Positions 1 to 21,915 of a DNA stretch of 64,000 nt are shown in pieces. The stretch is from Candidatus Xenobia bacterium (GTDB taxonomy: Bacteria > Vulcanimicrobiota > Xenobia > Xenobiales > QWHO01): positions 76,286-140,285 of the forward strand of contig BTUM01000007.1 of assembly GCA_045863235.1 (NCBI GenBank), read 5' to 3'. The notes under the pieces are model-generated. The model did no database searches and was not told the DNA's origin. It saw nothing but the letters and a program-made list of their open reading frames with translations. The translations under genes were made by a program, and so were the position numbers. Position 1 is the stretch's first letter. The number at the start of each line of letters is the position of its first letter.

Positions 1-23
1 CGAATCAGGTCCCCTCCGGTAAG

Positions 24-1817: not shown

Positions 1818-3452
1818 TCAGCGAACGCCGATCATCAGCGCGGTTGGGAACTGCGAAGCGGCGTTGGGCCGGCCGTCCACGATTCCATGCATGACGGTCC
1901 GGTTGGGACAGAACTGACCCGAGGTGAGGTTGATCTGCAACATGTTGCCGGTGATGGTACCGTCAGCGTTGACGCTGAAACTGCCTCCCACCACCGCTCC
2001 CATGACCTCGCGGACCAGCGGGAACGGGAAGATGGGAGTAAACGTGTCAGCATACAGCTTGGTAAACTGGAGGTTGGTGATGACCCCTCCGAGCAGGTCG
2101 ACGTTGGTGATATCCATGTCGGCGAGCAGTGACCCGTCGCCGCCGCGCAGGCCTACGTAGCGGATCTGGTTGGGCAGGTCATCGTTGCTGGACGTCTCGG
2201 TGGGCAGAGGAGCAGCATAGAAGACAAACTGCTGAAAGCCGAACTGAGCAGGAGTGGCGACTGCGGTCAGCATGACGCTGCCGTCGCCGGCCATGGTGCC
2301 CGACAGGCTGAAGTCGGAGATGCCGGGAATCGTGATCGTTCCTGTCACGTCGCCGTTGACGGCCACGTTATAGGTCCCGGTCGCGGAGTTGCCCACCACG
2401 GTACCCGTGAGATTGCCGGCTCCGTCGAATACAAGGTCGCCCGCTTGAGCCCCGGAATTGGGAGTAAAGCCGATCACGCCCGAGCCAGAGACCTTGAACG
2501 GCCCGTTCAAGCTGGCGTTGCTGAGGCCTGTCTGGGCTTTCTGCAGCTTGGCCATGCCGACCATGTAGTCGGTGGTCGGAGGATCGCCTCCAAAGAAGGT
2601 GGTGTAGATGGCGTCACCTGCTGGCGTGACCGTGACTCGCCCGTCCCAATCGATGTCGGCGAGGCGATCGGTGATCATGTCGGCGTGAAAATTTCGGGCC
2701 GCGTCGATGGTGTAGGTACCGCCGGTGATGTTGTAGGTCGTGCTCAAGTAGGTAGCCGGCGGGCCGGCCAGCGTGCCAAACGGGTTGGATTTGAGGATCT
2801 GGCCCCCGGTGATGTTGCCATTGCCGTCCAGGGTCACATTGCCGCTGATGACCCCGCTGCCGACGGCGCCACTGGCGCCGGTGATGGTGTAAGCACCCAC
2901 AGCCAGGCCATTGGTGCCGGTCAGCTGGTCGAAGAAGTCAGGGTTGTTGATGGGAAAGGTTTCATTGGCAACCAGCTGGACGAACTGGGTAAAGGTTCCC
3001 ACGACGTTGGTGCCCTGGACAAACTGGACGACCAGGATGACCACGGTCGGATCGACATCTTCGATCAGGATCTGCGCCGCCAGAGGCAGGTCGGCAGTCT
3101 GGAGGAGCTGGGTTCCAGCCGCGTTGAAGCCGGTGACTCGCACGGCTGTGACCGTATTGGGGACCTGGCGGGGCTGGAGGTCGAGGTTGAGCTGGATGTC
3201 AGCCAGGTTGTTGGGTACGTTCCCCCCGTCGACGGCTCCGCCAGCGGCTGCCCCACCAGCGTTCCCTCCGGCGGCGTTCCCTCCAGCAGCGTTCCCTCCA
3301 GCGGCGTTCCCTCCGGCGGCCGCGCCACCATCATTGAACGTAAAGTCCCCCCCTGTGCCCCCACCGCTCACATCAGCGCCGCTGGTGCATCCGAAGGCGA
3401 TGAGCATCGTGAGGAAGATGAAAAGAAATGCAAATTGTCTGAGCTGAACCAA
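1818..3452 (-). CDS. Secreted lipoprotein with a (GGNAA)n low-complexity tract followed by a Gly/Thr-rich beta-rich domain; function unknown.
   Basis: TTG start at 3452 with GGAGGG 6 nt upstream. Signal peptide LRQFAFLFIFLTMLIAFGC has a lipobox (AFGC). The tract GGNAAGGNAAGGNAAGGNAGGAAAGG is encoded by 15-bp tandem repeats. The ORF part upstream of 3452 would overlap the divergent GT gene. Confidence 0.6.
   Translation of the reverse strand: MVQLRQFAFLFIFLTMLIAFGCTSGADVSGGGTGGDFTFNDGGAAAGGNAAGGNAAGGNAAGGNAGGAAAGGAVDGGNVPNNLADIQLNLDLQPRQVPNTVTAVRVTGFNAAGTQLLQTADLPLAAQILIEDVDPTVVILVVQFVQGTNVVGTFTQFVQLVANETFPINNPDFFDQLTGTNGLAVGAYTITGASGAVGSGVISGNVTLDGNGNITGGQILKSNPFGTLAGPPATYLSTTYNITGGTYTIDAARNFHADMITDRLADIDWDGRVTVTPAGDAIYTTFFGGDPPTTDYMVGMAKLQKAQTGLSNASLNGPFKVSGSGVIGFTPNSGAQAGDLVFDGAGNLTGTVVGNSATGTYNVAVNGDVTGTITIPGISDFSLSGTMAGDGSVMLTAVATPAQFGFQQFVFYAAPLPTETSSNDDLPNQIRYVGLRGGDGSLLADMDITNVDLLGGVITNLQFTKLYADTFTPIFPFPLVREVMGAVVGGSFSVNADGTITGNMLQINLTSGQFCPNRTVMHGIVDGRPNAASQFPTALMIGVR
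3258..3318. repeat. In-frame 15-bp tandem repeat (x4) inside the lipoprotein gene, encoding GGNAA units.
   Basis: cgttccctccRgcRg repeated four times. Confidence 0.8.
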
Positions 3453-8514: not shown

Positions 8515-9290
8515 ACCCGGTAGCGATAGGTCCTGCCCGGCTCGCGCTCGCAGTCAGGAGGATAGCTCTTGCGCTTGGCAGCAAAGTATTCTTCGCGCCG
8601 ATCCCCCTCGCGACGCAGGCCGTAGGTGATGTACAGGATGCGCCGTGCCTGCGAGCTGTCGTTGGGACCCGACCGGTGGGGCACGAACGAGTCGAAGAAG
8701 ATGGTATCTCCCGGGGCCGCTTCCAGAGGCTGAAACTCGAGCCCCAACTCGCTCAGGGGCTCGTGCATCGGCCCGAGCAATCCTTCGCGGTGGCGCCCCG
8801 GGACGACTTCCAGGCAACCATTGCCCGGGGTGGCTCGATCGATGGCCACCATGGCCGTCAGGTGGATCGAGCCCCAGGCGTCCCAACCGGCCTGAACGTC
8901 CTGGTGGGGGGCAAAGCCGTCCCCTCCGGGAAGCTTGAAGTTCAACTTGTCCTTAAACAAGACCAGGCTCTCGCCCATGAGTTGCTCGGCGGTTTCGAGC
9001 AGCGCGCCCGTGCAGAGCTCCCGCAGATCGGGGTGGTAGGGAAGGAAGTTTTCGGCCCGGCAGAGCAAGCGTTGGTGGGGAATTCTTCGGTGAGGCTCGT
9101 AGTAGAGCATCCATTTGCCCTGGGTCTCGGGCCAGCTCTCCAACTCACCCACCCACTCTCGCAGAGGCTCGGCAGGCAAGAATCCGCTCAGGTGAAGGTA
9201 GCCGTCTCGTCGGTAATGCTCGACCTGATCAGGGGTCAGACTCACGGCTGGAGGTTTGACGCGCCTGGGCATTTCCTGCCAGGCGCTCAT
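8511..9290 (-). CDS. PhyH-family Fe(II)/2-oxoglutarate dioxygenase (PhnY*-like hydroxylase class).
   Basis: HxD...H...R arrangement: FAPHQDVQAGW and later FFDSFVPHRSGPNDSSQARR. About 250 aa. The start codon is uncertain because the first 60 nt overlap the PAP2 gene 3' end. Confidence 0.7.
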   Translation of the reverse strand: MSAWQEMPRRVKPPAVSLTPDQVEHYRRDGYLHLSGFLPAEPLREWVGELESWPETQGKWMLYYEPHRRIPHQRLLCRAENFLPYHPDLRELCTGALLETAEQLMGESLVLFKDKLNFKLPGGDGFAPHQDVQAGWDAWGSIHLTAMVAIDRATPGNGCLEVVPGRHREGLLGPMHEPLSELGLEFQPLEAAPGDTIFFDSFVPHRSGPNDSSQARRILYITYGLRREGDRREEYFAAKRKSYPPDCEREPGRTYRYRV

Positions 9291-10098
9291 AGAGCCCGGG
9301 TCCTACCAGGGCCCAGCCCAGAGCTACCGCCCAGCCAGCTGGCACGTCCACCAGGTAGTGGAATCGCGCGTAAACCGTGGCGAAAGCAATCGAGAGAGCG
9401 ATGAAGAGATAAAGACCGGTCAGGCCCGAGCGGGCACGCCAGGCGGCCAGCGCAGCGGCGGTGGACCAGGCGACATGACTTGAAGGAAAGGCGGCGCCGT
9501 CGACGGCTCCGTGATCGACCAGGCGATGGCACATATGCCAGAAGAAGCCCTGGCAGGCCGGCTCGAGGGCTGGCCAGAGCGGACGGGGACCCTGCACCGG
9601 AAAGAAGACTGCCACGAGATAGCAGGAGTAGAGCGTGGCCAGGCCCGTGAAAGTGGCCTGCTCGGCCGCTCCGGGGCGGCCCAGTTGGCGCAACCTCAGG
9701 GTCAGCAACGGGAGCAGAAGGTAGTAAAGCAGATAGCAGAGGTGCAGCCATTCGGAGAGCAGTCGATAGGGGAGCACCTGGCTCAGCCAGGCCGCCGGAG
9801 AGGCTCCAAAGAGCCGGGTCTCCCAGGCCAGCACGGTGGCGTCGTAATAAACCCCTGACAGGATGCGGTTCTGGATCTCTAATTCGCTGTACATGGGGAT
9901 CAGGAGGAAGAAGGGGTAGAGTCGGACCAGTCCGCCGCCAAGACGCGGGATCAGCCAGATGACCGCCAGGTGCCACAGGATACGGAGCGTGAGCTCTGCG
10001 GTGCTATGCCCGGCCGGCGGGTGGAACAGGCCCAGGGCCAGAAAGCCGGCAGTCAGGGCCAGGTAGGCCCGCACCAGCAGATCGACCGGATCGCTCAT
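9229..10098 (-). CDS. PAP2-superfamily membrane phosphatase/phosphotransferase (lipid phosphate phosphatase or sphingomyelin-synthase-like fold).
   Basis: Five or six TM segments. PAP2 motifs PSSHVAWS (C2) and SRFHYLVDV (C3: SRxxxxxHxxxD). The start ATG overlaps the upstream stop (ATGA). Confidence 0.65.
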   Translation of the reverse strand: MSDPVDLLVRAYLALTAGFLALGLFHPPAGHSTAELTLRILWHLAVIWLIPRLGGGLVRLYPFFLLIPMYSELEIQNRILSGVYYDATVLAWETRLFGASPAAWLSQVLPYRLLSEWLHLCYLLYYLLLPLLTLRLRQLGRPGAAEQATFTGLATLYSCYLVAVFFPVQGPRPLWPALEPACQGFFWHMCHRLVDHGAVDGAAFPSSHVAWSTAAALAAWRARSGLTGLYLFIALSIAFATVYARFHYLVDVPAGWAVALGWALVGPGLYERLAGNAQARQTSSRESDP

Positions 10099-11132
10099 CG
10101 CTTTCGCACCAGGAAGAAGGGGTCGTGGACGATTCGGCGGGCATCGATGAGGACCAGGTCATCCTCCACCACCAGATGGTGCAGCCCGTCGGGATAGGGC
10201 CAGCACTTCCGGGGAGAGAGCCGCAGCACGGGCTTCTCGTGAAAGGTCTCTGGAGTCAGCTCGAGCACCTCGTTGATCACTACGGCGTCGCCATAGCTCG
10301 AGGAGCAATCCTGGGCCGGGCGATAGAGGCGGCCGTCGAGCCGAAAAGGCTTGCCGGCCGAGCGCGTGGAGCGGATGTCCTGTTTGAGCGGGCTCTGAGC
10401 ATGGGGCTGAAAAGGGCCCAGCGGGGTCGCTGCAAAGGCAGCTTTGAGCCGGTAAGCGCCATGCCGGCTGGGACCGGTGTAGAGCAGCCACCAGCGGCCT
10501 TGATGCTCGAACAACACCGGATCCACGACTTGCGCGTCCTCGAGCAGAACCCGTTCCAGGATCAGGCCGTCTTGCACCCGATAGAGCTTGAGTCGCTGCT
10601 CGGCCAGGCTCTCCGGCAGGCAGTAGAGCTGGTCGTTCCAGGTGAGCAGGTAGGGGAATGAATGGTGCGAGCCTTCCAGGCGGGGAATGCGCTGGTTGTT
10701 CTCCGTAATCTCGACCAGTCGGGCCGGCCTTCCGTGACGGTGCTCCTCGACCATCAGGTGCCAGGCGTGATCTTGTCGGAAAGCGAAGGGGTCGGCCTCA
10801 TAGGTGAGCGGAGCGAGCTCGGGGCGCCAGGCCCACTTGAGGTGAGGGAGCTCGGAGAGGCTCTGAAGGCGATGGAGGGCGTAGCCAACTGCCCAGATGT
10901 CGTAAGTGAAAGCTTCGCGATAGAGATACTCGAGCCCGCGTCGTGCCTCGAACAGGGCTGTGAGGAATCGCTGGGGCCAGCTGATTCGAGCCGCCGGTTG
11001 AGCTCGGTGGAACTGCCCGGCCGCGCGCCGCAGAGTGCCCTGGTAGCTCCAGTGGGGGCGGAACCAGGCCTCGAACCCGTCCTCGCGCACGACCTTGATG
11101 GGCTTTCGTCGCCAGTACTCTTGAATGGTCAC
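10095..11132 (-). CDS. Hypothetical protein, predicted beta-rich (propeller or glycoside-hydrolase-like) fold; function unknown.
   Basis: GTG start at 11132 overlaps the GNAT gene stop (GTGA). No TM segment or signal peptide. The N-terminal 37 aa of the longer ORF call overlap the upstream gene and are rejected. Confidence 0.45.
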   Translation of the reverse strand: MTIQEYWRRKPIKVVREDGFEAWFRPHWSYQGTLRRAAGQFHRAQPAARISWPQRFLTALFEARRGLEYLYREAFTYDIWAVGYALHRLQSLSELPHLKWAWRPELAPLTYEADPFAFRQDHAWHLMVEEHRHGRPARLVEITENNQRIPRLEGSHHSFPYLLTWNDQLYCLPESLAEQRLKLYRVQDGLILERVLLEDAQVVDPVLFEHQGRWWLLYTGPSRHGAYRLKAAFAATPLGPFQPHAQSPLKQDIRSTRSAGKPFRLDGRLYRPAQDCSSSYGDAVVINEVLELTPETFHEKPVLRLSPRKCWPYPDGLHHLVVEDDLVLIDARRIVHDPFFLVRKR

Positions 11133-12196
11133 GCCCGCTCCAGCAGGCGGTAGGTCTTCTCGCGCCGAGCTCCCAGGGCGTTCAGCATGGCCTGCATGGG
11201 GCGGTTGTCGGCCAGCACCCAGGAAGCCTCCAGTCGCTCCCACGGGATGCGCGCGTCCAGTTTTACCAGCGCCTCGATCATGGCCCCAGCTACGTCAAGC
11301 TGTCGAGCCTCGCGCACGATCCCGATGGCATAGGCTCGATAGTTGCGGATCCAGCTGCGGCGCGTGAGGTAGTCGTAGAGAAGGCGAAGGGTCAATCGTC
11401 CCTGGCTTCGGGTCAGCATGGGGTTGAGATCGGGCAGGGTGATGAGAGCGCCCACCGTGGCGCCCTGATGCTCGGCGAACAGCACGGTCTCCGGGCGGAT
11501 CAAGAGCAAGCTGAGGACCACGAACTCCCGCATCATGGGCTCGTCGAATTCTTCGAAGCCCCAGTTGTCGGCCAGCGCGTTGTTGAAGACACTTGCCAGC
11601 CTGCGGGTGTCGCGAACCCGGTGCCAGGGATCCATGGATCGCACCGTCACCCCCTGCTCGGCCGCCCGGCGGGCCCGGCCTCGCATCAGGTCTTGCCTGA
11701 CCTCGCCCCGCTGGAAGCTGTAGGTATGCATCTCCTGCAGACTGCGAAAGCCGGCTTGCTCGAGCAACTCGGCGTAGTAGGGTGGGTGGTAGGCCAGCAA
11801 GAAGCTAGGCGGGGTGTCGAAGCCATCGACCAGCAGGCCCGGGTAGGGGTCCTCCTGGCGAAAATGGTAGGGGCCCCGCAGGGGCAGTCCGGGAAAAGTC
11901 TCGCAGGCCTGCTTGAAGAGTTCGTTCAGAGCCTGGTGCTGCCCCGGCAGGCACTCCAGAAAGCCGAAGTGGAGAGCTTGCTGATGGCGCTTGACGCCCA
12001 GGTGAGCCACCGGCTCGCCGTTATGCCAGGCCACGTAGAAGGCGCGCTCGGGGTCGTCGAGCCCACCCATCAGCTGTCGGTAGTGCTGCCAGAGCGGAGG
12101 CACCCAGGCCGGATGGCGGCCCGGGTAGATGGCTCGCGCGAGGCTCCAGAAAGCCAGACGCTCGCGCTCGGTGCGCACGCGGGTGATGCTCGTCAA
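11129..12196 (-). CDS. GNAT-like acyl/acetyltransferase with an extended N-terminal domain (putative).
   Basis: C-terminal VGALITLPDLNP...AIGIVREARQLDVAGAMIEALV fits the GNAT acyl-CoA-binding core. 355 aa. Confidence 0.45.
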   Translation of the reverse strand: MTSITRVRTERERLAFWSLARAIYPGRHPAWVPPLWQHYRQLMGGLDDPERAFYVAWHNGEPVAHLGVKRHQQALHFGFLECLPGQHQALNELFKQACETFPGLPLRGPYHFRQEDPYPGLLVDGFDTPPSFLLAYHPPYYAELLEQAGFRSLQEMHTYSFQRGEVRQDLMRGRARRAAEQGVTVRSMDPWHRVRDTRRLASVFNNALADNWGFEEFDEPMMREFVVLSLLLIRPETVLFAEHQGATVGALITLPDLNPMLTRSQGRLTLRLLYDYLTRRSWIRNYRAYAIGIVREARQLDVAGAMIEALVKLDARIPWERLEASWVLADNRPMQAMLNALGARREKTYRLLERA

Positions 12197-12233
12197 GGCC
12201 AGGTTTGTTCTGAACCGGCCGGGATGGGCCCTC

Positions 12234-13163
12234 TCAGGCCGAGCGGGTCAAGGGCTCCAATCGACGCATGTAGCGGGCCAGGGTCTGGATGGTGGGACCG
12301 TAGCCCTTGTGATAGATCGCGTACTCGAGCTCGTAGCCAAGCTTGCCGGCGCTCTCGAGCCGCTCGTTCGGATCGGGGGCCAGGCAACGATCGAGGGTTG
12401 CGGCCAGCATCGGGGTCAGGCCCGGGGGACTGCTCAGCCGGGTGCTCAGAAGCCGGGTGAGGGTTTCGCTCAAGCTCTCTCCCTCCACCAGGAAGGGATT
12501 CCGGCCCGTCAACAGCTCGTAGTAGACGACACCCAGGCTGAAGAGGTCGCTGCGACCGTCGGTGACCTGGCAGCTGGCCTGCTCGGGCGCCATGTACTCT
12601 ACCCGGCCATAGACCTGCTCGCCTTCTTTTGACTCGAGGTAGTGGGCCGCCTTGGCCACCCCGAAGTCTGCCAGCTTGACCTCGCCTTCGCCGGAAATCA
12701 GGATATTGTTGGGCGACACGTCACGATGGACCAGACCCAGGGGCTGGCCCTGCTCGTCGGTGCGCTCGTGAGCATACTCCAGGGCCCGGGCCAGCCGGCT
12801 GACGATGAAGGTGGCCAGCTCGACCGGCACGGTCTTTCCAGCGTGCAGATCGAGAAAGTGCCTCAGGCTCATCCCCTCGATCAGCTCCATGGCGATATAG
12901 GCTCCAAAGTCCGCCCGGCCCAGCTGGTAAATTTGCACGATGTTGGGGTGGATCAGGTTGGCCACCAGACGAGCTTCCCCCACGAACATCTGGCTGAACT
13001 CGCTCGACTCGCTCAACCAGGGGTGCAACACCTTGAGGGCAACCCGCTTGGAGAAGCCGTCGGCTCCCAGTTGCTGAGCCTCGTAAACGGTGCCCATGCC
13101 TCCCGAAGCGAGCTCGCGGATGATCCGGTAGCGAGTTTCTTGAACGAAATACTGAGGAGTCAC
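12234..13163 (-). CDS. Hanks-type Ser/Thr protein kinase, kinase domain only.
   Basis: GxGxxGxV loop (LASGGMGTVYEA), VAIK-like ALKVL, catalytic HRDVSPNNILI, DFGVAK, APE (MAPEQ). No sensor or TM domain. First gene of the minus-strand operon. Confidence 0.85.
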   Translation of the reverse strand: MTPQYFVQETRYRIIRELASGGMGTVYEAQQLGADGFSKRVALKVLHPWLSESSEFSQMFVGEARLVANLIHPNIVQIYQLGRADFGAYIAMELIEGMSLRHFLDLHAGKTVPVELATFIVSRLARALEYAHERTDEQGQPLGLVHRDVSPNNILISGEGEVKLADFGVAKAAHYLESKEGEQVYGRVEYMAPEQASCQVTDGRSDLFSLGVVYYELLTGRNPFLVEGESLSETLTRLLSTRLSSPPGLTPMLAATLDRCLAPDPNERLESAGKLGYELEYAIYHKGYGPTIQTLARYMRRLEPLTRSA

Positions 13164-13245
13164 GACAGAGCTTGACTTCGATTCAAGCGCTCGCGGTCCT
13201 TCTTTTCGGGTTTCCTTCAGGCAGGCAGGCTAGTCTGATGTCAAC

Positions 13246-14391
13246 ATGCGCATTCTGGTTACCCATAGCTCCTCCACCGGACACGGCCACCGGATGGCCG
13301 CCGAGGCCCTGGTCAGCGCCCTGCGCGAGCATCCGGGTGTGGAGGCCGAGTCGTTCGACATGCTCAGCGTCTGCCCGCCCGAGGTGCGCGAAGCCCAGAA
13401 GAAGAGCGTGCAGGCCTTCGAAAGCCGCGAGAAGCTGGCTCGCTGGAGCTACGAGCTGGCCCTGGCCGGCAACCCTGTCATCGGCACCGTGCAGTGGGCC
13501 ATCAACCACTACAAGGCATGGATGGCCCCGGAAGCTCTGCAGTACATCAAAGACTACCAGCCTGACCTGATCGTCAGCACCCACGAGCAGGCCAGCGGCC
13601 TGGTGGACATCTGGAAAGATAGCGGCGAGCTGACCGCCCCGCTGGTCAACGTGCACACCGACCACCTGGCCGACATGCGCTGGGTGCAGCCCCAGGTGCA
13701 GCACTACTTCGTCGCCAACGAGCTCATGCGCGAGGATCTCGCCCGCCTGGGGGTCGAGCCCGAGAAGGTGAGCGTCACCGGAATTCCCATTCGTCCGGAG
13801 TTTGGCCAGCCCGCCCCGGCCGATCTGGATCAGAAGCTGGGCCTCGACCCGACCTTGCCCACCGTGCTCATCATGGGCGGCGGGCTGGGCCTGCAGCCCT
13901 TCAATCGCCAGGTGGAGGCGCTCGAGCGCCAGCCGTATCCGATGCAGATCGTGTGCGTGTGCGGCACCAACCAGGCTGCCTACGACGAGCTGAAGGCCCG
14001 CCAGGGTGGCAATCACCCGTTGCATGTGCTGGGCTCGGTCAAGAATATGCCCGAGCTGTTGAAGGCGGCCGACGTGGTGGTCAGCAAGGCGGGGGGGTTG
14101 ACCACCTCGGAGATCCTGGCCACCGGCAAGCCGATGATTCTGTACAATCCGCGTCTGGGTCTGTCGGTGCACCAGTCCAATCGGCTCGAGTCCATCGGGG
14201 TCGCCAGCATCGCCCGCAGTGGCGACGAGATGGCCGGCCAGGTGGTGGGCTACCTGAGCGACGAGACTCGCAAGGAGCAGGTAGCCCAGGCCATGGCCCG
14301 GGCCAGCAAGCCCGACTCCAGTCGCGCCATCGCCTCCGAGCTGGTCCAGATGGCAGCCCGGCACCAGAACACCCTGAACGTCTCAGCCTGA
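13246..14391 (+). CDS. GT28-family diacylglycerol glycosyltransferase (MGDG synthase/UgtP-like).
   Basis: N-terminal RILVTHSSSTGHGHRMAAEAL matches the MGDG-synthase/UgtP N-terminal signature. C-terminal GT-B half has GGLTTSE. 381 aa. Divergent from the kinase gene. Confidence 0.75.
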   Translation: MRILVTHSSSTGHGHRMAAEALVSALREHPGVEAESFDMLSVCPPEVREAQKKSVQAFESREKLARWSYELALAGNPVIGTVQWAINHYKAWMAPEALQYIKDYQPDLIVSTHEQASGLVDIWKDSGELTAPLVNVHTDHLADMRWVQPQVQHYFVANELMREDLARLGVEPEKVSVTGIPIRPEFGQPAPADLDQKLGLDPTLPTVLIMGGGLGLQPFNRQVEALERQPYPMQIVCVCGTNQAAYDELKARQGGNHPLHVLGSVKNMPELLKAADVVVSKAGGLTTSEILATGKPMILYNPRLGLSVHQSNRLESIGVASIARSGDEMAGQVVGYLSDETRKEQVAQAMARASKPDSSRAIASELVQMAARHQNTLNVSA

Positions 14392-14461
14392 CTTCGTCTA
14401 TAGCGATGTTGAGAGGGTCTTGCCCTGTTCTTGGGGGAAAGCTGCTGCAGAGGCTCCGCGC

Positions 14462-16939
14462 TCAGATCTTGTTCAACAGGTCGTACTTGCGCGTGACAGG
14501 AGCGACCGCGGTCAGTCCGGTGTGCAATCCCTCCACCGTCACCGATGACACGCGGGTGCGCCAGGGACGAACCGAGTGGATCAGCCCGCCCCAGCTCTCC
14601 ATACCGGTATCTTTCCGATATTGCCCGGGGAAGAAGATGGGGTCGGGCATCTGGATGGAAAGCCCGCTGGCTGCTCCCAGCGACGCCTCGTTGCGATTCA
14701 CCACCACCGCCTCCTGCAAAAGCGCCTGGCAGCGGGCGGCCAGCTGGGCCACCTCGGCATCGGGACAGCCCTGCTGCAGCTTTTCCAGAAAGCTCCCAAG
14801 GTCGCCGTAGCCCGGGAAGTTCACGAAGCGCTTGAGCCCCAGCCACAAGTTCTCCAGTGTTCCTCGCCAGCCCGGGGCGGTGGACTTCTCCTCGCGAGGG
14901 AAATGGCGCGTCTGGGCGGCCGCTTGCTGGAAGTGCTCGCCGACCACGGGTAGCTTCTCTTGCACTATGGCCGCCAGCTCTTCCACCGAGGCGGTCAGGG
15001 CCGGCAGCTTCTCCAGGTCCACCAGCGAGAGCGTGGGCACCACCTCGTTGCCGCCATGGCGTTTCACCAGCATTTCGCCGAAGGTCTTGGGGTCCTTGTC
15101 GATCTCTCCCAGTCGGGGCAGGATATAGGTCCAGGGCAGACCTGCTTCCCACAGGCTGTCCTGGCTGACCACTGCGTAGCGGGCGTGCTGGCCCAGGTCC
15201 TTGAGCGCTTCCAGGTTGGCCATCTCGCAGGCTTCCATGATCAGCACGTCAACCTTTTTGCCCGTCTGGGCGTGGGTCAGCTCCAGGGCTTTGCTCACGT
15301 CGGCCATCTTCATGCCGGCCAGGCGCTTGTAGCCCAGGCCATGGCCTTCGAGCAGCACGGCAGTGTGCTCGGAAGGGTAACGTTTCATCGAGCGCACCCA
15401 CAGGTTGCTCAGGGCTTCGGGGCTGGGCGCGTCGGTGCTGGAGCTGCGCTCGACCGTGTGGGTCTGGATGGTGTTGCGGCCGGGAGTGTGCACGCCCCCG
15501 GCAGCCAGTTCGTAGGTGCGGGTGCCCGACCAGCTGGCCTCCTCGTGAGCCTCAGCCACCCGGCCGGCGGTCCGGCGGTCCTTGATACCCTGATAGATGG
15601 AGAAAGCCGCCCCCTGAGCCAGCTGGCTTCCCACCAGCAGGGCCGGGATTCCGGCCAGACCGAACAGTCCGAAAGCTGCTGCGCCTGCCGCCACGGCCAG
15701 GGCCGGCAGAGCATAGATCTTGAAAGTCGCGCTGCGCTTTAAAGACTCCACGTCTTTGCCCTCGCGTCGCAACTGCAGCACCACGTGGGCATCCGGATGG
15801 GGGTTGCGCTCGAAGTCGATCACCTGACGGGTGCGCATCGGCTCGAGCTCACTGGCAGTGGCGTCCAGGTGCCCGACGATGGTCCAGGGGCGGGAAGCGG
15901 CCATCGGCACCATCGGCAGGGACTCCCTGACACTGGTTGGAGTTTCCACCTGGCAACCGCATCCGCAGCCGACCGGGTGGCGATGGCTCTCGCCCTGCCC
16001 GTCCACCAGATCGCGGGTGAGGTTGCGTCCCAGCACTCGCCCGCCGTGCCAGCCCTCGATGGCGCCCAGTTTGAGTCCTTTGCCCAGCCCGACCGCGAGG
16101 CCGGCCACAAAACCCGCCGGGCCCAGCACGGCCGAGGCGGCCAGACTGCCAACGGCTCTTGCCATGCTTTCGTGCCAACCGGCCAGCGTTTTGTCCAGCT
16201 TCGAGCCTTCCGCCGAGGGGCCGTATCTCTTGGTCCAGCTCGCTTCCAGGCTGGCGTTTTGACCGAGCCCCGAGTTGACTCCCCGGAAGGCCCCGTAGCT
16301 GGCTCCCACCAGTCCGAAGGCGCACAGTCCGGTCAGGCCGCCCAGCACTCCACCCACCACCGAGCCGGTGGCGGTGGCCGCTCCGGCCAGCGGGCCCAGT
16401 TTTTTCTTATCGGGCTGCACCCAGGGCCGGTTGTGAATGATCTTGAAGCGCGGGGGAGCGGTCGGATCGTGGTCGGGATGCTCCACGACCAGCACCCGCA
16501 GCTCGTCCTTGAGGATCTTGACCCACTCTTCATTGAGGGCTTTCGCCTCGCTGGCCCGCCCGGCTTTCAGCTCGGACTGCATCCGGCCCAGAATCTGGTG
16601 CACATCCGCCAGACGCTCGAGCGCAGCCTGGTCTTCCACCGCAAAGCGCGTTCCCACCTGATCGGGTGGTGTCGTGGCCAGCTGTACCACAAACTGTTTC
16701 AAGCGCTCCTCATACTGGTCGGACGAGCAACGCTTGAGGCGCATCAACCCCGAGAAGGCCCCCTGGACCATGCCATCCTGCTCGACGGCTTCCTTCATGA
16801 AAGCACTGCAGGACGGGGTGTACATGCAGTGAGCGCCCCGCTCGCCGTTGTAGTCGGCCGAGATGTAGTCCTGGTAAAGGCTGACCACCTTGTGAGCGGC
16901 GCCTGCCACGACCTGGCGAGGGATCTGGGTCACCTTCAT
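14462..16939 (-). CDS. Multi-domain membrane protein: N-terminal YidD-like (membrane-protein insertion efficiency factor) domain, two Gly-zipper TM regions, C-terminal clostripain-like (peptidase C11) domain.
   Basis: N-terminus LYQDYIS...CMYTPSCSAFMKEAVEQDGMVQGAFSGLMRLKRC parallels the YidD core (FYQxFIS...CRFxPTCSxYaxeAi...RC). The C-terminal 300 aa carry the C11 His/Cys dyad context (LLEGHGLGYK ... VDVLIMEACEMANLEA). Hydrophobic GxxxG-rich segments lie in the middle. Confidence 0.7.
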   Translation of the reverse strand: MKVTQIPRQVVAGAAHKVVSLYQDYISADYNGERGAHCMYTPSCSAFMKEAVEQDGMVQGAFSGLMRLKRCSSDQYEERLKQFVVQLATTPPDQVGTRFAVEDQAALERLADVHQILGRMQSELKAGRASEAKALNEEWVKILKDELRVLVVEHPDHDPTAPPRFKIIHNRPWVQPDKKKLGPLAGAATATGSVVGGVLGGLTGLCAFGLVGASYGAFRGVNSGLGQNASLEASWTKRYGPSAEGSKLDKTLAGWHESMARAVGSLAASAVLGPAGFVAGLAVGLGKGLKLGAIEGWHGGRVLGRNLTRDLVDGQGESHRHPVGCGCGCQVETPTSVRESLPMVPMAASRPWTIVGHLDATASELEPMRTRQVIDFERNPHPDAHVVLQLRREGKDVESLKRSATFKIYALPALAVAAGAAAFGLFGLAGIPALLVGSQLAQGAAFSIYQGIKDRRTAGRVAEAHEEASWSGTRTYELAAGGVHTPGRNTIQTHTVERSSSTDAPSPEALSNLWVRSMKRYPSEHTAVLLEGHGLGYKRLAGMKMADVSKALELTHAQTGKKVDVLIMEACEMANLEALKDLGQHARYAVVSQDSLWEAGLPWTYILPRLGEIDKDPKTFGEMLVKRHGGNEVVPTLSLVDLEKLPALTASVEELAAIVQEKLPVVGEHFQQAAAQTRHFPREEKSTAPGWRGTLENLWLGLKRFVNFPGYGDLGSFLEKLQQGCPDAEVAQLAARCQALLQEAVVVNRNEASLGAASGLSIQMPDPIFFPGQYRKDTGMESWGGLIHSVRPWRTRVSSVTVEGLHTGLTAVAPVTRKYDLLNKI

Positions 16940-17017
16940 AGCTCGATTATCCCGCCATGAACTGAAAGAAGCCTGACGAGCATTCTCGCCAGGCTTCTCG
17001 AGGGTGCTACGCGTGGA

Positions 17018-17293
17018 TCAGCCGCGCTGGTTCTGACCGTTGGAGCAGCAGACGCTGAAGACTACCAGGGCGCAGACACCGGCGGCCACCAGGGTGAGGA
17101 AGTCGGTCTCCATGTTGGCGGCCTTGCTGTTGGGCGCGGCGGTTTCGGCGTAAGCGACCTTGGGGGAGACGGCTTCGTCCGAGACGCTGCCGGCGTAGCC
17201 GTCCTGGCTGCCGGACGCGGCCTGCGGCTGGGAGCCGGAGGCGCGGGTCGCCTGGGTGTAGCCGGCGACGGCGGGGTTGATGGTGCTGATCAT
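17018..17293 (-). CDS. Small (91 aa) tail-anchored membrane protein; Ala/Ser/Gln-rich N-terminus, C-terminal TM helix, Cys-Cys near the C-terminus.
   Basis: GGGAGG Shine-Dalgarno 6 nt upstream of the ATG. C-terminal FLTLVAAGVCALVVFSVCCS is a TM segment. Isolated transcription unit. Confidence 0.45.
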   Translation of the reverse strand: MISTINPAVAGYTQATRASGSQPQAASGSQDGYAGSVSDEAVSPKVAYAETAAPNSKAANMETDFLTLVAAGVCALVVFSVCCSNGQNQRG

Positions 17294-17419
17294 GGTGGTC
17301 CTCCCGTGTTTGTGATTTGGTCCCTTGTCTGTGACGATTTGCGTCGAGACTACCCAGGTGGCCTGAAAATCTTCTGAAGCGGCAGGAACCGTGCGCTCGG
17401 CCGCACAGAATCAGACCGC

Positions 17420-18325
17420 ATGGCACGTATTGCTCGCAAAGGACGCGACGGGGCGCTCTATATCGGCTACCGAGAAGAAGACGGCGGGATCTTGATCCCC
17501 GACGAGCGCATGAAGGGGCCGGCCGGCAGCACGCGCACCGGGGATATCGTGGGCCACGAGTTTCGCTCGGAGATTCTCGGCGATGAGCGCATCATCATGG
17601 TCTATCGGCCGCCCGGCTATTCGCCCATGAATCCCTGGCGCTACCCGGTGCTCTACCTCAACGACGGACAGAACATGTTCGATGCCGCCACTTCGGCCTT
17701 CGGTGTCGAATGGCAGGTGGACGAGACGCTCGAGCGCCTCATCTCTGAGCGAGCCATTCAGCCGATTCTGGCGGTAGCGGTCTACAACTCGGCGGAGCGT
17801 TTCGACGAATACACCCCCGCGCCCGATCCCGAGCATGGGGGCGGTGGAGCCGACCGCTACGGGATGTTCCTGGCCAACGAGTTGCAGCCATTCATCAACC
17901 GCGAGTATCGCACCAACACCGATCAGACCGCCTTGATGGGCTCCAGCCTGGGGGGTCTTTGCTCATTGTACCTGGGCTGGCAGTATCCGCGTTGCTTCAA
18001 CCTGGTGGCCGCCCTCTCGCCCTCCCTCTGGTGGGCAGGGCGGGAGCTGACCAGAGCCATTGCCGAGTCTCCCCGCACGTGTGACGACGGGCCGGAGAAG
18101 ATCTGGCTCGACATGGGAACGAAGGAAGACAAGGACGACGACCTGATCGCTGACATTCGCGCCCTGCGCAAGGTTCTGGTGAGCAAGGGATACGTGGTGG
18201 GGGAGAACCTGTTTTATCGCGAGGTCAAGGGGGCCTATCACACCGAGTCTTCCTGGGCCAAGCGGGTGGGGGACGTCTTGCAGGCGTTGTTCCCTCCCGG
18301 TCGAGGCTACTTTACGGCCGACTGA
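17420..18325 (+). CDS. Esterase-family alpha/beta hydrolase (enterochelin-esterase/esterase D-like).
   Basis: Nucleophile elbow LMGSSLGG (GxSxG), central VLYLNDGQNMFD motif, C-terminal His. 301 aa. Confidence 0.7.
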   Translation: MARIARKGRDGALYIGYREEDGGILIPDERMKGPAGSTRTGDIVGHEFRSEILGDERIIMVYRPPGYSPMNPWRYPVLYLNDGQNMFDAATSAFGVEWQVDETLERLISERAIQPILAVAVYNSAERFDEYTPAPDPEHGGGGADRYGMFLANELQPFINREYRTNTDQTALMGSSLGGLCSLYLGWQYPRCFNLVAALSPSLWWAGRELTRAIAESPRTCDDGPEKIWLDMGTKEDKDDDLIADIRALRKVLVSKGYVVGENLFYREVKGAYHTESSWAKRVGDVLQALFPPGRGYFTAD

Positions 18326-18375
18326 CCTGCGTTTTCAATTTCGTGGTGGCTGTCTGGAAGGAGTCCCCCTCGGAT

Positions 18376-18480
18376 GCCGAATCATGCGGCTGGATTTTTT
18401 TTCAAGGAGCTTCGATGCGTTTAAGAACCAGCCTCTACTTGCTAGCTTTGCTCTTCCTGTTCGGCTGTTCCGGCGGGGGG
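18376..18480 (+). repeat. Duplicated leader/5' region, copy A: hairpin-like gccgaatcatgcggc, then T8, SD AAGGAGC, ATG, and signal-peptide codons. Near-identical to 19916-20020.
   Basis: Direct comparison of the two regions (~90% identity across leader, RBS and first ~60 codons). Confidence 0.8.
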
Positions 18481-19782
18481 TCGAGTTCCGCCGGCGGCGG
18501 CGTGCCCGCCCCGCCTCCAGGCCCCCAGCTGGTGAGCATGAAACTCGATGTCGAGGTCCTCGACCAGGCTCAGCGGTCCATCCAGGGCCGTTCGGGGGTC
18601 ATCGAGGTGGTCGCCGAGGTGGTGGACCGCAATACTCTCGATACCGGCACTCTCAGCGGCCGCAAGGTCATCTCGCGAGGGGCGGCCACGGTGGGGGACA
18701 CCGACCGAGTCGTCAAGATCTTGCTGGACATCATTCCGGGCATCTGGGATATCTACATCTTCGGCCTGGACTCCGAGGGCAAGGTGGTGGCACTTTCCAC
18801 CATCGATCAGCTGACCATCACTCCGGGAGTGGTGCTCGAGCAGCGGGTCAGCCTGCAGTCCCAGAGTCGCTCGGTGTTCGTCAATCCGTCCAATGCGGCT
18901 ATCCAGGTCGGACAGCAGCAGCAATTCTCCGCCCTCGTCTTCCTCCCCACCGGGAACAGCACCAGCGTGAACTGGGCCTCGGACAACCCGGCCGTCGCTA
19001 CGGTAGACGCTAACGGCCTGGCGACCGGGTTGGCGGCCGGTGTCACCACCATCCGGGCGACTTCCACGGTGGACAACAGCCTGCAGGGCTCCGCCCAATT
19101 GACCGTGGCTGCCGACAACAATGCCCGCCTTGTTGGCCTTTACACCGTGGCCCTGGCGGGAACGAGCGCGGACGGCCTGGATGTCTTCTCGGTTCTGTCC
19201 AACCTGAATTTGGACGGAGCGGGAGGAGTTACTGATGCCGGCTCCGGTCTCTTCGAGGATGGAGTGCCCGGTCTGCAGCCAGTGACTCTGGGCCTCGTGC
19301 AGTACAGCGTCGCCAATGACGGGACGGTCACCTTTACCGGGAATGCCACCGCCAGTACCGGCGTGGGCCCCCTCTCGGCGGACAATCTGACCATTCCTCT
19401 GACCTTCGCGGGACCGGCGGGGAGCGGCGAGGGGTTTGCCGTTCGCCAGGAGGCGGGCGGGGTGACCCCTGCCTCCATCGCAGGGAACTGGACGGGGGCG
19501 CTTCTGAGGAGTACGGGGGTTCCGTTCGCGCCCGGTACCACGGCGACCGTGACGATCAATGGCAATGGCACGCTCAGTGGAGCCATTCAGGAGCCTGGCC
19601 TGCCCGACGTGACCTTTGCCGGAAACTTCACCGTGACCGCAACTGGCCTGCTGCAGGCAAACGTGGTCGATGGCTTCGGAGATCCCATCGTCATCAACGG
19701 CCAGGTCGGGGCCAACCAGACCCGGATCGTCATCATCGGTCAGGACAGCTTGAATACAAGCTTTGCCGCCGTGCTTCAGTAG
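18415..19782 (+). CDS. Lipoprotein with a Big_2 (bacterial Ig-like) domain; paralog A.
   Basis: ATG at 18415 with AAGGAG 5 nt upstream. Signal peptide MRLRTSLYLLALLFLFGCSGG (lipobox LFGC). Big_2-like segment VFVNPSNAAIQVGQQQQF...VNWASDNPAVATVDANGLATG. Confidence 0.7.
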   Translation: MRLRTSLYLLALLFLFGCSGGGSSSAGGGVPAPPPGPQLVSMKLDVEVLDQAQRSIQGRSGVIEVVAEVVDRNTLDTGTLSGRKVISRGAATVGDTDRVVKILLDIIPGIWDIYIFGLDSEGKVVALSTIDQLTITPGVVLEQRVSLQSQSRSVFVNPSNAAIQVGQQQQFSALVFLPTGNSTSVNWASDNPAVATVDANGLATGLAAGVTTIRATSTVDNSLQGSAQLTVAADNNARLVGLYTVALAGTSADGLDVFSVLSNLNLDGAGGVTDAGSGLFEDGVPGLQPVTLGLVQYSVANDGTVTFTGNATASTGVGPLSADNLTIPLTFAGPAGSGEGFAVRQEAGGVTPASIAGNWTGALLRSTGVPFAPGTTATVTINGNGTLSGAIQEPGLPDVTFAGNFTVTATGLLQANVVDGFGDPIVINGQVGANQTRIVIIGQDSLNTSFAAVLQ

Positions 19783-19793
19783 CTCGTTCTCTG

Positions 19794-19881
19794 CGTTCGA
19801 GCCAGTCCGACTGGCTTGAACGCAGGGTCGTTCGTCTCAGTCAAGCCAGTCACAGGCTCTCTGCTTGTGCTGGCTTGACTG
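19794..19881. promoter_or_regulatory. Array of four alternating-orientation copies of a ~11-bp motif (GACTGGCTTGA / TCAAGCCAGTC) forming two hairpins or palindromic operators upstream of lipoprotein paralog B. It overlaps a TTGACT -35-like hexamer.
   Basis: gttcgagccagtc|cgactggcttgaac and cagtcaagccag...ctggcttgactg. Confidence 0.4.
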
Positions 19882-19915
19882 CGTGTTGGGCTGGAAAAGG
19901 AGTTTGCCCTGAATG

Positions 19916-20020
19916 CCGAATCATGGGGCTGGATTTTTTTTCAAGGAGCTCTGATGCGTTTAAGAACCAGCCTTTACTTGCTAGCTCTGCTCTTCCTGTT
20001 CGGCTGTTCCGGCGGGGGGG
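19916..20020 (+). repeat. Duplicated leader/5' region, copy B (see 18376-18480).
   Basis: Same T8 tract, SD and signal-peptide coding as copy A. Confidence 0.8.
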
Positions 20021-21915
20021 CGAGTTCTGCCGGCGGTGGTGTGCCTGCCCCCCCTCCAGGCCCTCAGTTCGTGAGCATGCGACTCGATGTCGCGGTGCCC
20101 GATCTGGCCCAGCGGGCCGTTCAGAGCCGCTCGCAGATCTTCGAAGTGGTGGTCGAGGTCGTTGATCGGAATTCGCTCGACCCGGGCACCCTCAGCGGCC
20201 GGAAGATCATCTCTCGCGGGGCGGCCTCGGTGGGTGAAACCGACCGGACTGTGAAGGTTCTCCTGGATGTGATTCCGGGGATCTGGGACATCTACATTTT
20301 CGGCCTGGATTCGCAGGGCAAAGTGGCGGCCCTCTCGACCATCGACCAGCTCGCGATCGTCGCGGGCGCCGTCATTGAGCGGAAGGTCAACCTTCAACAG
20401 GTGAACCAGGGAGTCTTCGTGACTCCCACCAGTGCGGCGGTTCCTGTCGGCGGGCAGGCTCAATTTTCAGCCGTGGTCTTCCTGCCGACCGGGACCAGCA
20501 CCAGTGTCAACTGGGTTTCTGATAATCCCGCAGTGGCCGGCGTTGACGCCAACGGCTTGGCGACCGGTTTGTCTCCGGGTCAGGCTCTTATCCGGGCGAT
20601 TTCCACCGTGGACAGCACCCTCCAGGGGACCGGGGTCCTGAATGTGACACCGCCCAATGTCACCGTGCAGTCGGTCACGCTCACTTTCAACCCCGGCTCC
20701 CCGGTGCGGCTTGGCCAGGCGGGTCTGCAGTTCAGCGCAGTTGCGAGTTTTAGCGATGGCACAAGCCAGGCTATTACACCGGACCAGTTCGTCAGCAGCG
20801 ATCCGACGGTGCTATCCGTGGATTCGGCCGGAGCGGCTCAGGCTCTGGACGTGGGCACGAGTGACGTGACGGCGGACTTCATGGGCGTGACGAGCGCACC
20901 GGTGACCGTGGACGTCGAGGCAAGCCGGGTCATCGTCGTGGAGTCCGAGCTCATCCAGCCCGACGAGATTTTCTCCTATCTTCTCGATGAGGGGACGGGC
21001 AGTCTCGTCCAGGTTGATGTCGAGACAGTCCCGGGCGGAGTCGGGGCTGGAATGGGCGGAGATCCTGACAGCGATGCCGTGTTCGTCAGCCAGACCAACA
21101 ACACTCTGGCGATTTACCTGGTGAGCGCACTGGGTATTCTGAACCAGTCCCAGATCATCGGTCTGGGCGGTGCTCCGACGCTTGTGCCCGCCACCGGCGC
21201 GGGAGGCTTCCTCTACCTCGCCGACAACAACCCGACTCCCCCTGATCTTCGCACCTTTGCCTTTGACGGTGTGCTCTACAACCTGGTCGGCCTCTCAAGT
21301 CCTGCTGGCGTTGCCGAGGTCCAGGTGATGGCCGCCAAGAACGGGATTCCAGCACTCTACCTGGCAGATTTCCTCGGGAATCTGTTGAACGGCCTGGTGC
21401 TGACCGGCTCCATTCCGGATGCGGTCGGAACCCAGGTGGGCGGCTCTCCCCAGGCGCTCGGCACTTCGCCTGCTCGCCTCGAGATTCACCCCAGCAACAA
21501 CTTCCTGGTGGTCGGTCGTACCGCTCATCTCGATGTCTTCCCCATCGATGCTGCCGGCAACATCACCGGGCCCGCCATCAGCACCCAGGTGACGGCCGGG
21601 ACGGCTTTCACCGCCCTGGCCATTCACCCGAGCGGGAACTTCGTGGCCGCCTGCACCCAGCAGGCCGGGGGAGTGATCGAGATCTTCCCGATCAACGCTT
21701 CGGGCATCCTGTCGCCGGCGGTGGCTACCATTCCCTCATCCGGCTCGCAGATCTTTGGCCTCGGTTTCAACGCCACCGGGACCTTCCTGATCTATCCGGA
21801 GCTGACCAACAATCAGGTGGTGGTCCAGCGGTTCGATCCGAATACCGGTGCCGTGACCCCCGCCACCACCAGCGGCGGGATCAACCGGCCCTTCGAGATG
21901 TTCATCTTCCCCTGA
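19954..21915 (+). CDS. Lipoprotein, paralog B: same signal peptide and N-terminal domain as 18415-19782 plus two Big_2-like domains and a C-terminal lactonase-like beta-propeller region.
   Basis: The first ~220 aa are ~75% identical to paralog A, including an identical lipobox. The C-terminal 200 aa (HPSNNFLVV...FPIDAAGNITGP...AIHPSGNFVAA...) have repeated propeller-blade-like units. Confidence 0.7.
   Translation: MRLRTSLYLLALLFLFGCSGGGASSAGGGVPAPPPGPQFVSMRLDVAVPDLAQRAVQSRSQIFEVVVEVVDRNSLDPGTLSGRKIISRGAASVGETDRTVKVLLDVIPGIWDIYIFGLDSQGKVAALSTIDQLAIVAGAVIERKVNLQQVNQGVFVTPTSAAVPVGGQAQFSAVVFLPTGTSTSVNWVSDNPAVAGVDANGLATGLSPGQALIRAISTVDSTLQGTGVLNVTPPNVTVQSVTLTFNPGSPVRLGQAGLQFSAVASFSDGTSQAITPDQFVSSDPTVLSVDSAGAAQALDVGTSDVTADFMGVTSAPVTVDVEASRVIVVESELIQPDEIFSYLLDEGTGSLVQVDVETVPGGVGAGMGGDPDSDAVFVSQTNNTLAIYLVSALGILNQSQIIGLGGAPTLVPATGAGGFLYLADNNPTPPDLRTFAFDGVLYNLVGLSSPAGVAEVQVMAAKNGIPALYLADFLGNLLNGLVLTGSIPDAVGTQVGGSPQALGTSPARLEIHPSNNFLVVGRTAHLDVFPIDAAGNITGPAISTQVTAGTAFTALAIHPSGNFVAACTQQAGGVIEIFPINASGILSPAVATIPSSGSQIFGLGFNATGTFLIYPELTNNQVVVQRFDPNTGAVTPATTSGGINRPFEMFIFP

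Follow-up and report, generated by a model that had tools for sequence, protein, structure and literature searches.

A YidD-like domain fused to a clostripain-family peptidase in Candidatus Xenobia, and a small gene linked to it

YidD is encoded in most bacterial genomes, beside yidC, and as far as we know no summary of what it does at the molecular level yet goes beyond 'putative insertion efficiency factor'. The characterised bacterial members of the clostripain (C11) family of cysteine peptidases are, as far as we are aware, all secreted or surface proteins. These two families meet in a single gene of Candidatus Xenobia (class Xenobia, phylum Vulcanimicrobiota), and this gene, its relatives and its neighbours are the subject of this article. 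The gene lies at 14462-16939 on the minus strand of a 64,000-nucleotide (nt) stretch of DNA (assembly GCA_045863235.1, contig BTUM01000007.1, positions 76,286 to 140,285), here called the window, and encodes a protein of 825 amino acids (aa). Two later articles (PMC8082313; PMC3573977) count E. coli YidD among the factors associated with SecYEG/YidC, citing the transport and cross-linking work of Yu et al. 2011.

The architecture described here, a YidD-like domain followed by a C11 peptidase with a membrane hairpin built into its fold, is new, as are the two-module family in which it occurs in fused and split forms and the small protein linked to that family. Both domain families are already known; the C11 part is a regular member in fold and catalytic dyad, and the YidD part agrees with its family only in part. 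A first-pass annotation of the window, made from the sequence, had taken the fusion to be undescribed, and this has held up. No description turned up in a literature search on fusions of YidD and on YidD together with clostripain, and the database labels are automatic only, for example 'membrane protein insertion efficiency factor YidD' and 'hypothetical protein'. The architecture is also rare, with about 12 clusters of fusions among the best 150 of 1,457 profile hits. It is probable that the fusion is one component of a three-part system for processing at the membrane that has not been described before.

The fusion gene and its two modules

The open reading frame (ORF) starts with an ATG at 16939 and stops with a TGA at 14462-14464; all features of the fusion and of the small gene described below lie on the minus strand. 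Overlapping ORFs in other frames are an ordinary by-product of a G+C content of 65%. The protein is a 100% match to the NCBI protein AMXMBFR33_13440, a 'hypothetical protein' of a Candidatus Xenobia metagenome-assembled genome (MAG). Exactly two Pfam families are present in it, YidD (PF01809) and Peptidase_C11 (PF03415), and a Pfam scan of the 825 aa admitting expectation values (E) of up to 10 found nothing besides these. Full-length relatives are known at 94%, 73% and 70% identity. The ratio of non-synonymous to synonymous substitution (dN/dS) is 0.07 against the first of these and 0.26 against the second, with constraint in every region of the gene; the ORF is under purifying selection.

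Such an ORF would have a trivial explanation if a mistake in assembly or a false frameshift had joined two neighbouring genes, or if it were a pseudogene in decay, and one relative of 64% identity does have the gene in two ORFs of 439 and 383 aa (locus L005, 6001-8481). This break, however, falls at query residue 444, within the hairpin of the C11 fold and not at the module junction near residues 330-350, so it is the L005 split that is the likely error, through a frameshift or in assembly, and not a natural division. The dN/dS values also speak against decay, and the structural model described below is confident in the domains flanking the junction. Because the same full-length fusion recurs in at least five independent close assemblies, with about ten more distant clusters in addition, it is not an assembly chimera. 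An artefact is thus extremely improbable: the fusion protein is real and conserved. The relative with 94% identity is found, together with a near-identical small ORF, on a contig labelled 'uncultured Burkholderiales' (L003; CAZWUN010000005.1), where the label or the binning of the MAG is probably wrong.

A structural model was obtained with AlphaFold from a 52-sequence alignment of remote homologues, with a predicted local distance difference test score (pLDDT) of 89.7 and a predicted template modelling (TM) score of 0.81; a model made with three close sequences had a pLDDT of 40 and was not used. The modelled chain begins with the helical, YidD-like domain (residues 11-70) and continues through a linker (73-145), a beta-hairpin (147-169), a long helix (183-224), two short helices, a second long helix (265-313) and a weakly predicted junction into the C11 domain, which occupies the remainder from about residue 350. 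The part ahead of the junction is referred to as the N-module and the part after it as the C-module.

The YidD core and the C-terminal C11 domain with its His/Cys dyad were both recognised in the first-pass annotation, which quoted the motifs LYQDYIS...CMYTPSCSAF...RLKRC, EGHGLG and LIMEACEMA. All of these are present in the 825-aa protein, and both domains score above the curated cut-offs of their profiles. The YidD-like domain (residues 17-72; 16724-16891) matches PF01809 with an E of 4.8e-13 and 49.1 bits against a cut-off of 27, and the NCBIfam equivalog model TIGR00278 with 43.9 bits against a cut-off of 40. Coverage of the profiles is partial, positions 6-57 of 67 in Pfam and 4-58 of 64 in TIGR00278, and the canonical C-terminal end of YidD (PF01809 positions 58-67) is missing. 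A divergent fusion of 882 aa, P0105, matches positions 6-67, including the complete C-terminal end, and looks like an intermediate form. The cysteines Cys38 (16826-16828), Cys44 (16808-16810) and Cys71 (16727-16729) are kept in 33/34, 34/35 and 33/33 homologues, respectively, P42-S43-C44-S45 is at least 86% conserved, and a YidD-type match is found in every one of the 33 homologues that contain the N-module. The YidD part is a divergent paralogue of YidD rather than an orthologue. No second YidD-like ORF was found in the window.

The rest of the N-module is particular to this family. Residues 73-180 (16400-16723) have no Pfam match and form, in the model, a helical linker (73-145) followed by a short beta-hairpin with strands at 147-152 and 164-169 (pLDDT 86-98); this region aligns in all of the stand-alone N-modules described below. 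Two glycine-zipper helices follow. The first (residues 183-224; 16268-16393) is a single helix of 42 residues in the model, with glycines at i/i+4 spacing in two runs, G192/196/200/204 and G212/216/220, and with G204 at least 90% conserved. The second (residues 265-313; 16001-16147), of 49 residues, carries an unbroken (GxxxG)x6 ladder at i/i+4 comprising G276, 280, 284, 288, 292, 296 and 300, each of which is kept in 27-32 of 32-33 homologues (84-97%). If a transmembrane glycine zipper is taken to be at least three glycines at i/i+4 in a hydrophobic, conserved helix, then the ladder is one, although no curated Gly-zipper family was matched, the NCBIfam scan giving only the chance-level PRK11280 (E 1.6). 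The two hydrophobic GxxxG-rich regions of the first-pass annotation are thus both real, with Kyte-Doolittle maxima over 19 residues of 1.87 (residues 181-221) and 1.77 (residues 258-296); a third hydrophobic region, within the C11 fold, had been overlooked. The N-module ends in a His/Cys-rich motif, HRHPVGCGCGCQ (residues 319-330; 15950-15985), around which the confidence of the model is low (residues 311-349). As the stand-alone N-modules P0019, P0023 and P0134 terminate in HPxxCxC motifs that resemble it, the fusion point can be placed near residues 330-350.

The C11 module (residues 350-825; 14465-15892) is identified by PF03415, by Foldseek and by profile alignment. PF03415 matches residues 507-661 (51.1 bits, with a cut-off of 25.8; E 2e-13) but spans only profile positions 70-240, because an inserted hairpin interrupts the fold. 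The domain as a whole starts near residue 350 and not near residue 507. In a Foldseek search, the C-terminal half of the model matched clostripain (9cip; E 6e-12), 6n9j (3.7e-10), the zymogen of distapain (6mzo; 1.6e-9) and also 6nag, with target TM-scores of 0.56-0.70 against C11 structures. A profile of the family aligns to clostripain with an E of 9e-17, and its GH and (E/D)xC motifs fall on the HG and DAC of clostripain. The key residues are His533 (15341-15343), Glu569 (15233-15235) and Cys571 (15227-15229). Both members of the dyad are kept, His533 in 34/34 and Cys571 in 33/33 aligned homologues, and 29 of the 31 homologues that contain the C-module have a Pfam C11 match. The protease looks catalytically intact and active from these residues.

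The spacing between His533 and Cys571 is 38 residues, compared with 46 between His133 and Cys179 in PmC11. No obvious activation loop was seen in the C11 module on inspection, a point for which no dedicated test was made. The position two residues before Cys571 is acidic in 30/31 homologues, with Glu in 24 and Asp in 6. The corresponding residue is the presumed S1 Asp in the C11 enzymes PmC11, PNT1 and clostripain (PMC4850289). Glu569 is the predicted S1 residue here, and the use of Glu for Asp may influence specificity. Since an acidic residue occupies the presumed S1 position, a preference for Arg or Lys at P1 would be expected.

The insertion into the C11 fold is a hydrophobic helical hairpin (residues 397-464; 15548-15751), modelled as helices 397-426 and 432-464. 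It contains the third hydrophobic segment (residues 403-449), the maximum hydropathy of which, 2.03, is the highest of the three. The hairpin, of about 65 residues, sits where clostripain has about four, between clostripain residues 108 and 113, and the family profile aligns to clostripain on either side of it.

Split forms of the family and the linked small gene

Relatives were collected with an exhaustive hidden Markov model (HMM) profile search of 1.84 billion representatives, which gave 1,457 hits, including 38 with an E below 1e-30. By our count, in clusters at 50% identity, the best 150 of these hits divide into four classes. The full fusions, of 630-880 aa, account for the dozen or so clusters mentioned above. 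Stand-alone N-modules of 275-365 aa, corresponding to query residues 10-310 and thus to YidD, linker and glycine zippers, form about 23 clusters, and stand-alone C-modules of 420-590 aa, corresponding to query residues 343-800 and including the hairpin, about 45. The fourth class consists of ordinary C11 proteins that match in the catalytic core only. A word-indexed homologue search gave at least three proteins with the full protein and at least eight with an N-module alignment, while profile scans gave two loci in genome contigs and three in metagenome contigs (YidD core only). Where the carriers are named, they are MAGs of Vulcanimicrobiota/Eremiobacterota/Xenobia and of Armatimonadota.

Four loci with a split N-module have sufficient sequence around it for neighbours to be seen, and in two of these the halves are adjacent genes. 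At the P0160 locus, on a JGI contig, a 464-aa PF03415 gene lies 87 bp from the N-module gene and is divergent from it. In an Armatimonadota MAG (L010), the C-module P0033 is divergent from an operon, the last gene of which encodes the N-module P0035; P0033 is 32% identical to query residues 352-762 (E 1e-40). Because the halves are separate proteins in related bacteria, the Xenobia protein can be regarded as the fusion of a two-protein system. A 474-aa protein encoded upstream of the N-module P0064 (L006) was tested as a further C-module and rejected.

Directly upstream of the fusion gene and on the same strand lies a conserved small gene (17018-17293), whose product of 91 aa is a candidate substrate or partner of the protease. 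A GGGAGG ribosome-binding site is located 7 nt ahead of its ATG. The product consists of a hydrophilic, fast-evolving N-terminal part, a hydrophobic C-terminal helix (FLTLVAAGVCALVVFSVCC; mean Kyte-Doolittle value about 2.6), a Cys-Cys pair at the end of this helix and a short tail that often ends in Arg; it has no N-terminal signal peptide. Across the family these proteins are single-pass and of 70-95 aa, and they fall into 12 clusters at 90% identity, all unnamed and with no Pfam domain. The small protein of L001 is 63% identical to that of the window with the helix identical, and the dN/dS of the small gene is 0.04 against L003, its closest relative. The motifs DGYAGSV and CC are common to proteins from different phyla.

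The small gene is found upstream of the system in the window, in three further Xenobia loci (L001, L003 and L005), in L010, where it overlaps the start of the N-module gene, in L011, where a divergent protein of 70 aa is encoded upstream of the fusion P0008, and in L012 of Eremiobacterota, which has a fusion of 634 aa (P0012). With a family HMM it was detected upstream and on the same strand in 7/7 loci that have both modules and available DNA, as against 0/4 loci that hold only one module. The short contig L002 carries the 70%-identical fusion gene; the sequence ahead of that gene, at the contig end (1-292), does not hold the expected small ORF but appears to be a tandem repeat, with LSTLDSQL / GVSPRDSRL units in its translated frames.

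Between the small ORF and the large gene is a stem-loop of 15 bp followed by UUUCAGUU (16960-16999), which resembles an intrinsic terminator. It was revealed by RNA folding, a simple terminator scan having given no intergenic hairpin; the 81-nt intergenic region folds with -35.6 kcal/mol (z -3.9). A strong, GC-rich stem-loop with a U-run behind it is present in all six loci with an intergenic gap between the small and the large gene, and the hairpins of L001, L003, L005, L011 and L012 are equivalent and differ in sequence between lineages. The arrangement fits a small product made in excess over the enzyme.

Other genes beside the modules deserve mention. In L008, a gene for a calpain-family (PF00648) cysteine protease (3-845, plus strand) is directly upstream of the stand-alone N-module P0066, and a PF00648 gene also occurs about 0.9 kb downstream of the fusion P0004. 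As the calpain gene of L008 adjoins an N-module, this suggests that the N-module may partner cysteine proteases generally and pair with more than one family of them. Beside P0066 there is also a gene (2114-2497, minus strand) for a 127-aa protein composed almost wholly of GxxxG repeats. Its N-terminus, MISTVSN..., resembles the MISTINP... of the small ORF in the window; no significant similarity between the two was found.

Membrane topology and proposed role

No signal peptide was found in any module, and the stand-alone C-modules start only a few residues ahead of their first beta-strand. The flanks of the hydrophobic segments carry 1.1-2.0 Lys plus Arg per ten residues as an average over about 30 homologues, and the loop between the two glycine-zipper helices is likewise rich in these residues; the turn of the C11 hairpin has no Lys or Arg in 26 homologues. 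In the fusion P0012 a single glycine-zipper helix takes the place of the two in the query, between the same domains, a difference that does not sit easily with one membrane crossing per zipper helix. The simplest and most likely reading puts both the YidD and the C11 domain on the cytoplasmic side, in which case the protein would be unlike the secreted processing proteases known among bacterial C11 enzymes. The glycine-zipper helices and the hairpin would then be anchors, spanning the membrane in pairs or dipping into its inner leaflet.

The model that we favour, tentatively and at a little less than an even chance, is of a membrane-anchored, cytoplasm-facing C11 protease directed to Arg or Lys that processes the small protein, the YidD module serving for docking or insertion. 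It builds on the domain identities, the fold, the catalytic conservation, the split and fused forms and the linkage of the small gene, which are shown, and adds to them a proposed topology, P1 specificity, substrate and role for the YidD module. The inserted hairpin would keep the C11 active site on the cytoplasmic surface of the membrane. Docking of the complex, to the membrane or to the site at which YidC inserts the small protein, would fall to the YidD-derived module, and the protease would then cleave that protein behind a basic residue. YidC is well known for clients of this type, small and with one hydrophobic helix. An alternative target would be the N-C linker of the fusion itself; self-cleavage is conceivable because this disordered linker holds basic residues. 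In a more specific version, a dedicated C11 protease that faces the cytoplasm would have acquired a YidD paralogue as the arm by which it docks to the membrane or the insertase, and would mature the Cys-Cys protein during its insertion, the three components forming an undescribed system of Vulcanimicrobiota/Eremiobacterota and Armatimonadota. This version is distinctly more doubtful.

Several observations weigh against the favoured model. By hydropathy each glycine-zipper helix could cross the membrane by itself. The C-modules P0044, P0049, P0051, P0057, P0060 and P0084 carry one extra N-terminal hydrophobic helix, which, if membrane-spanning, would put their C11 domain outside the cell. The N-modules of L006 and L008 have no C11 neighbour within 5-7 kb and the C-modules of L013 and L014 no N-module within 5 kb, in a sample of only about ten inspected loci. 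The YidD domain may have lost any role related to YidC, since its canonical C-terminal end is gone and neither yidC nor rnpA adjoins it. Finally, at no fixed position of the small protein is an Arg or Lys invariant. The N-terminal extension of the C-module subgroup just named is 80-125 aa long and combines an acidic stretch with the hydrophobic helix. These extensions were considered as fused copies of the small protein and rejected; the small-protein HMM gave no significant match to them and the resemblance is in layout only.

Other roles have to be weighed. The protein might be a protease-gated effector in conflict or programmed death, in which the glycine zippers and a 'haemolytic' YidD domain form a pore or lesion and the C11 domain activates or restrains it, in loose analogy to the cleavage of bacterial gasdermins by caspase-like proteases. 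Conserved GxxxG ladders are typical of channel-forming helices, and the N-module has long ones. PF01809 was first named the 'haemolytic domain' because YtjA of B. subtilis lyses cells (PMC3573977). Genes of toxin-antitoxin or defence type are neighbours at the P0160 locus (AbiEii), in L010 (HepT/MNT) and in L012 (PIN), and in L008 the N-module is beside calpain, which belongs to a different cysteine protease family. However, no PADLOC defence model was matched by the fusion, the small protein, one stand-alone N-module or one stand-alone C-module, and no conserved sensor or NTPase partner accompanies the family. The neighbours in Xenobia are lipid/glycosyltransferase, kinase and esterase genes in conserved synteny rather than a variable island, and selection on the gene is steadily purifying. 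An effector of this kind is therefore improbable. Much the same low probability attaches to a general quality-control or maturation protease at the YidC/Sec site with many substrates, for which the small protein would be an accessory or unrelated. The tie of the small gene to two-module loci across phyla, 7/7 against 0/4, is difficult to explain in this way, and the sampled family is limited to Vulcanimicrobiota/Eremiobacterota and Armatimonadota, which would be unusual for a housekeeping function; moreover, the YidD domain is a divergent paralogue that lacks the canonical C-terminus. A general protease would account for the conserved catalytic site and for stand-alone C-modules with neither N-module nor small gene nearby, and would agree with the place of E. 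coli YidD among the SecYEG/YidC-associated factors (Yu et al. 2011, as cited in PMC8082313).

A sortase-like transpeptidase is also conceivable, in which the C11 domain would recognise the helix and Cys-Cys of the small protein, cleave there and transfer the N-terminal part to an acceptor. Other enzymes of clan CD transpeptidate, namely PorU of the type IX secretion system, glycosylphosphatidylinositol (GPI) transamidase and the legumain-type ligases. The small protein is laid out as a sorting signal, with a motif, a hydrophobic helix and a short tail that often ends in Arg, and the inserted hairpin would keep the protease at the membrane. The small protein lacks an N-terminal signal peptide, however, conserved genes for the synthesis of an acceptor are not found nearby, and we know of no evidence of transpeptidation for any C11 enzyme, so this explanation is very unlikely.

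If the more specific version of the model is true, then the fusion would be a natural Rosetta stone: a YidD-type domain would for the first time have a specific client and partner, and a C11 peptidase would for the first time be known to act on the cytoplasmic side of a bacterial membrane. A YidD-type domain fused to, or encoded beside, a protease and accompanied by a small membrane protein is in any case a concrete functional context, and a C11 fold with its own membrane hairpin, apparently facing the cytoplasm, would widen the biology of that family. The system thus gives a handle on what YidD-type domains do. With two or three genes the system is small, and its reconstitution in E. coli is feasible.

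Neighbouring genes and comparison with known systems

Neither yidC nor rnpA is among the nine flanking ORFs at 9229-21915 by Pfam scan; the domains found there are PAP2, GINT1_N, kinase, MGDG synthase, esterase and Big_2. The downstream side (9229-14391) is rich in lipid and glycolipid genes and encodes a PAP2 phosphatase, a GINT1_N-like transferase, an MGDG-synthase/GT28 protein, a GNAT-like protein and a Ser/Thr kinase. Three of these genes, for the kinase, the MGDG synthase and the GINT1_N protein, are also near the fusion gene in L001, in a different order. On the other side are two tandem paralogues on the plus strand (18343-19782 and 19954-21915) with near-identical N-termini of lipoprotein type (MRLRTSLYLLALLFLFGCSGGG) and Big_2 domains; the second has an additional match to a lactonase-like beta-propeller.

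With YidD (PF01809/TIGR00278), the 'membrane protein insertion efficiency factor' of E. coli, the protein has in common the core YQxxIS...CxxxPSCSxY...RxxRC and its three cysteines. In contrast to the free-standing protein of about 85 aa, the domain is here part of 825 aa with no rnpA or yidC within 5 kb. Profile positions 58-67, which P0105 keeps, are absent, and a family-specific helical linker and glycine-zipper helices are added. Relative to E. coli YidD, there is also an insertion of four residues, containing DYN, before the first Cys.

The C11 peptidases of known structure, clostripain (9cip), PmC11 (3uws/4yec), the thetapain/iotapain-type enzymes of B. thetaiotaomicron (6n9j/6nag), distapain (6mzo) and fragipain (5dyn), have the same fold, including the C-terminal domain, the same His-Cys dyad with an acidic residue two before the Cys, and an N-terminal D-A-x-x-x-L-E motif in common with the C-module. 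Unlike them, the protein described here has no signal peptide or lipoprotein signal, its predicted S1 residue is usually Glu rather than Asp, and a YidD-like module goes with it, either in one protein or through linkage of the genes. Compared with clostripain in particular, a hydrophobic hairpin of about 65 residues replaces about four.

The order of the genes recalls lantibiotic operons, in which a precursor-peptide gene is followed by a leaky terminator and then by a processing enzyme. In both, a strong ribosome-binding site precedes a small gene, which is followed by a stem-loop and U-run and then, on the same strand, by the protease gene. The small protein differs in having a transmembrane helix and no recognisable leader and core, modification enzymes are not found nearby, and the system described here is known from sequence alone. 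A broader likeness is to the bacterial gasdermins with their caspase-like proteases and to the clan CD transpeptidases PorU and GPI8, where a clan CD cysteine protease is likewise coupled genetically to a membrane-active or membrane-anchored partner. Here there is no gasdermin fold, no PADLOC match and no secretion signal; the membrane partner is instead a YidD and glycine-zipper module together with a small protein that resembles a tail-anchored one.

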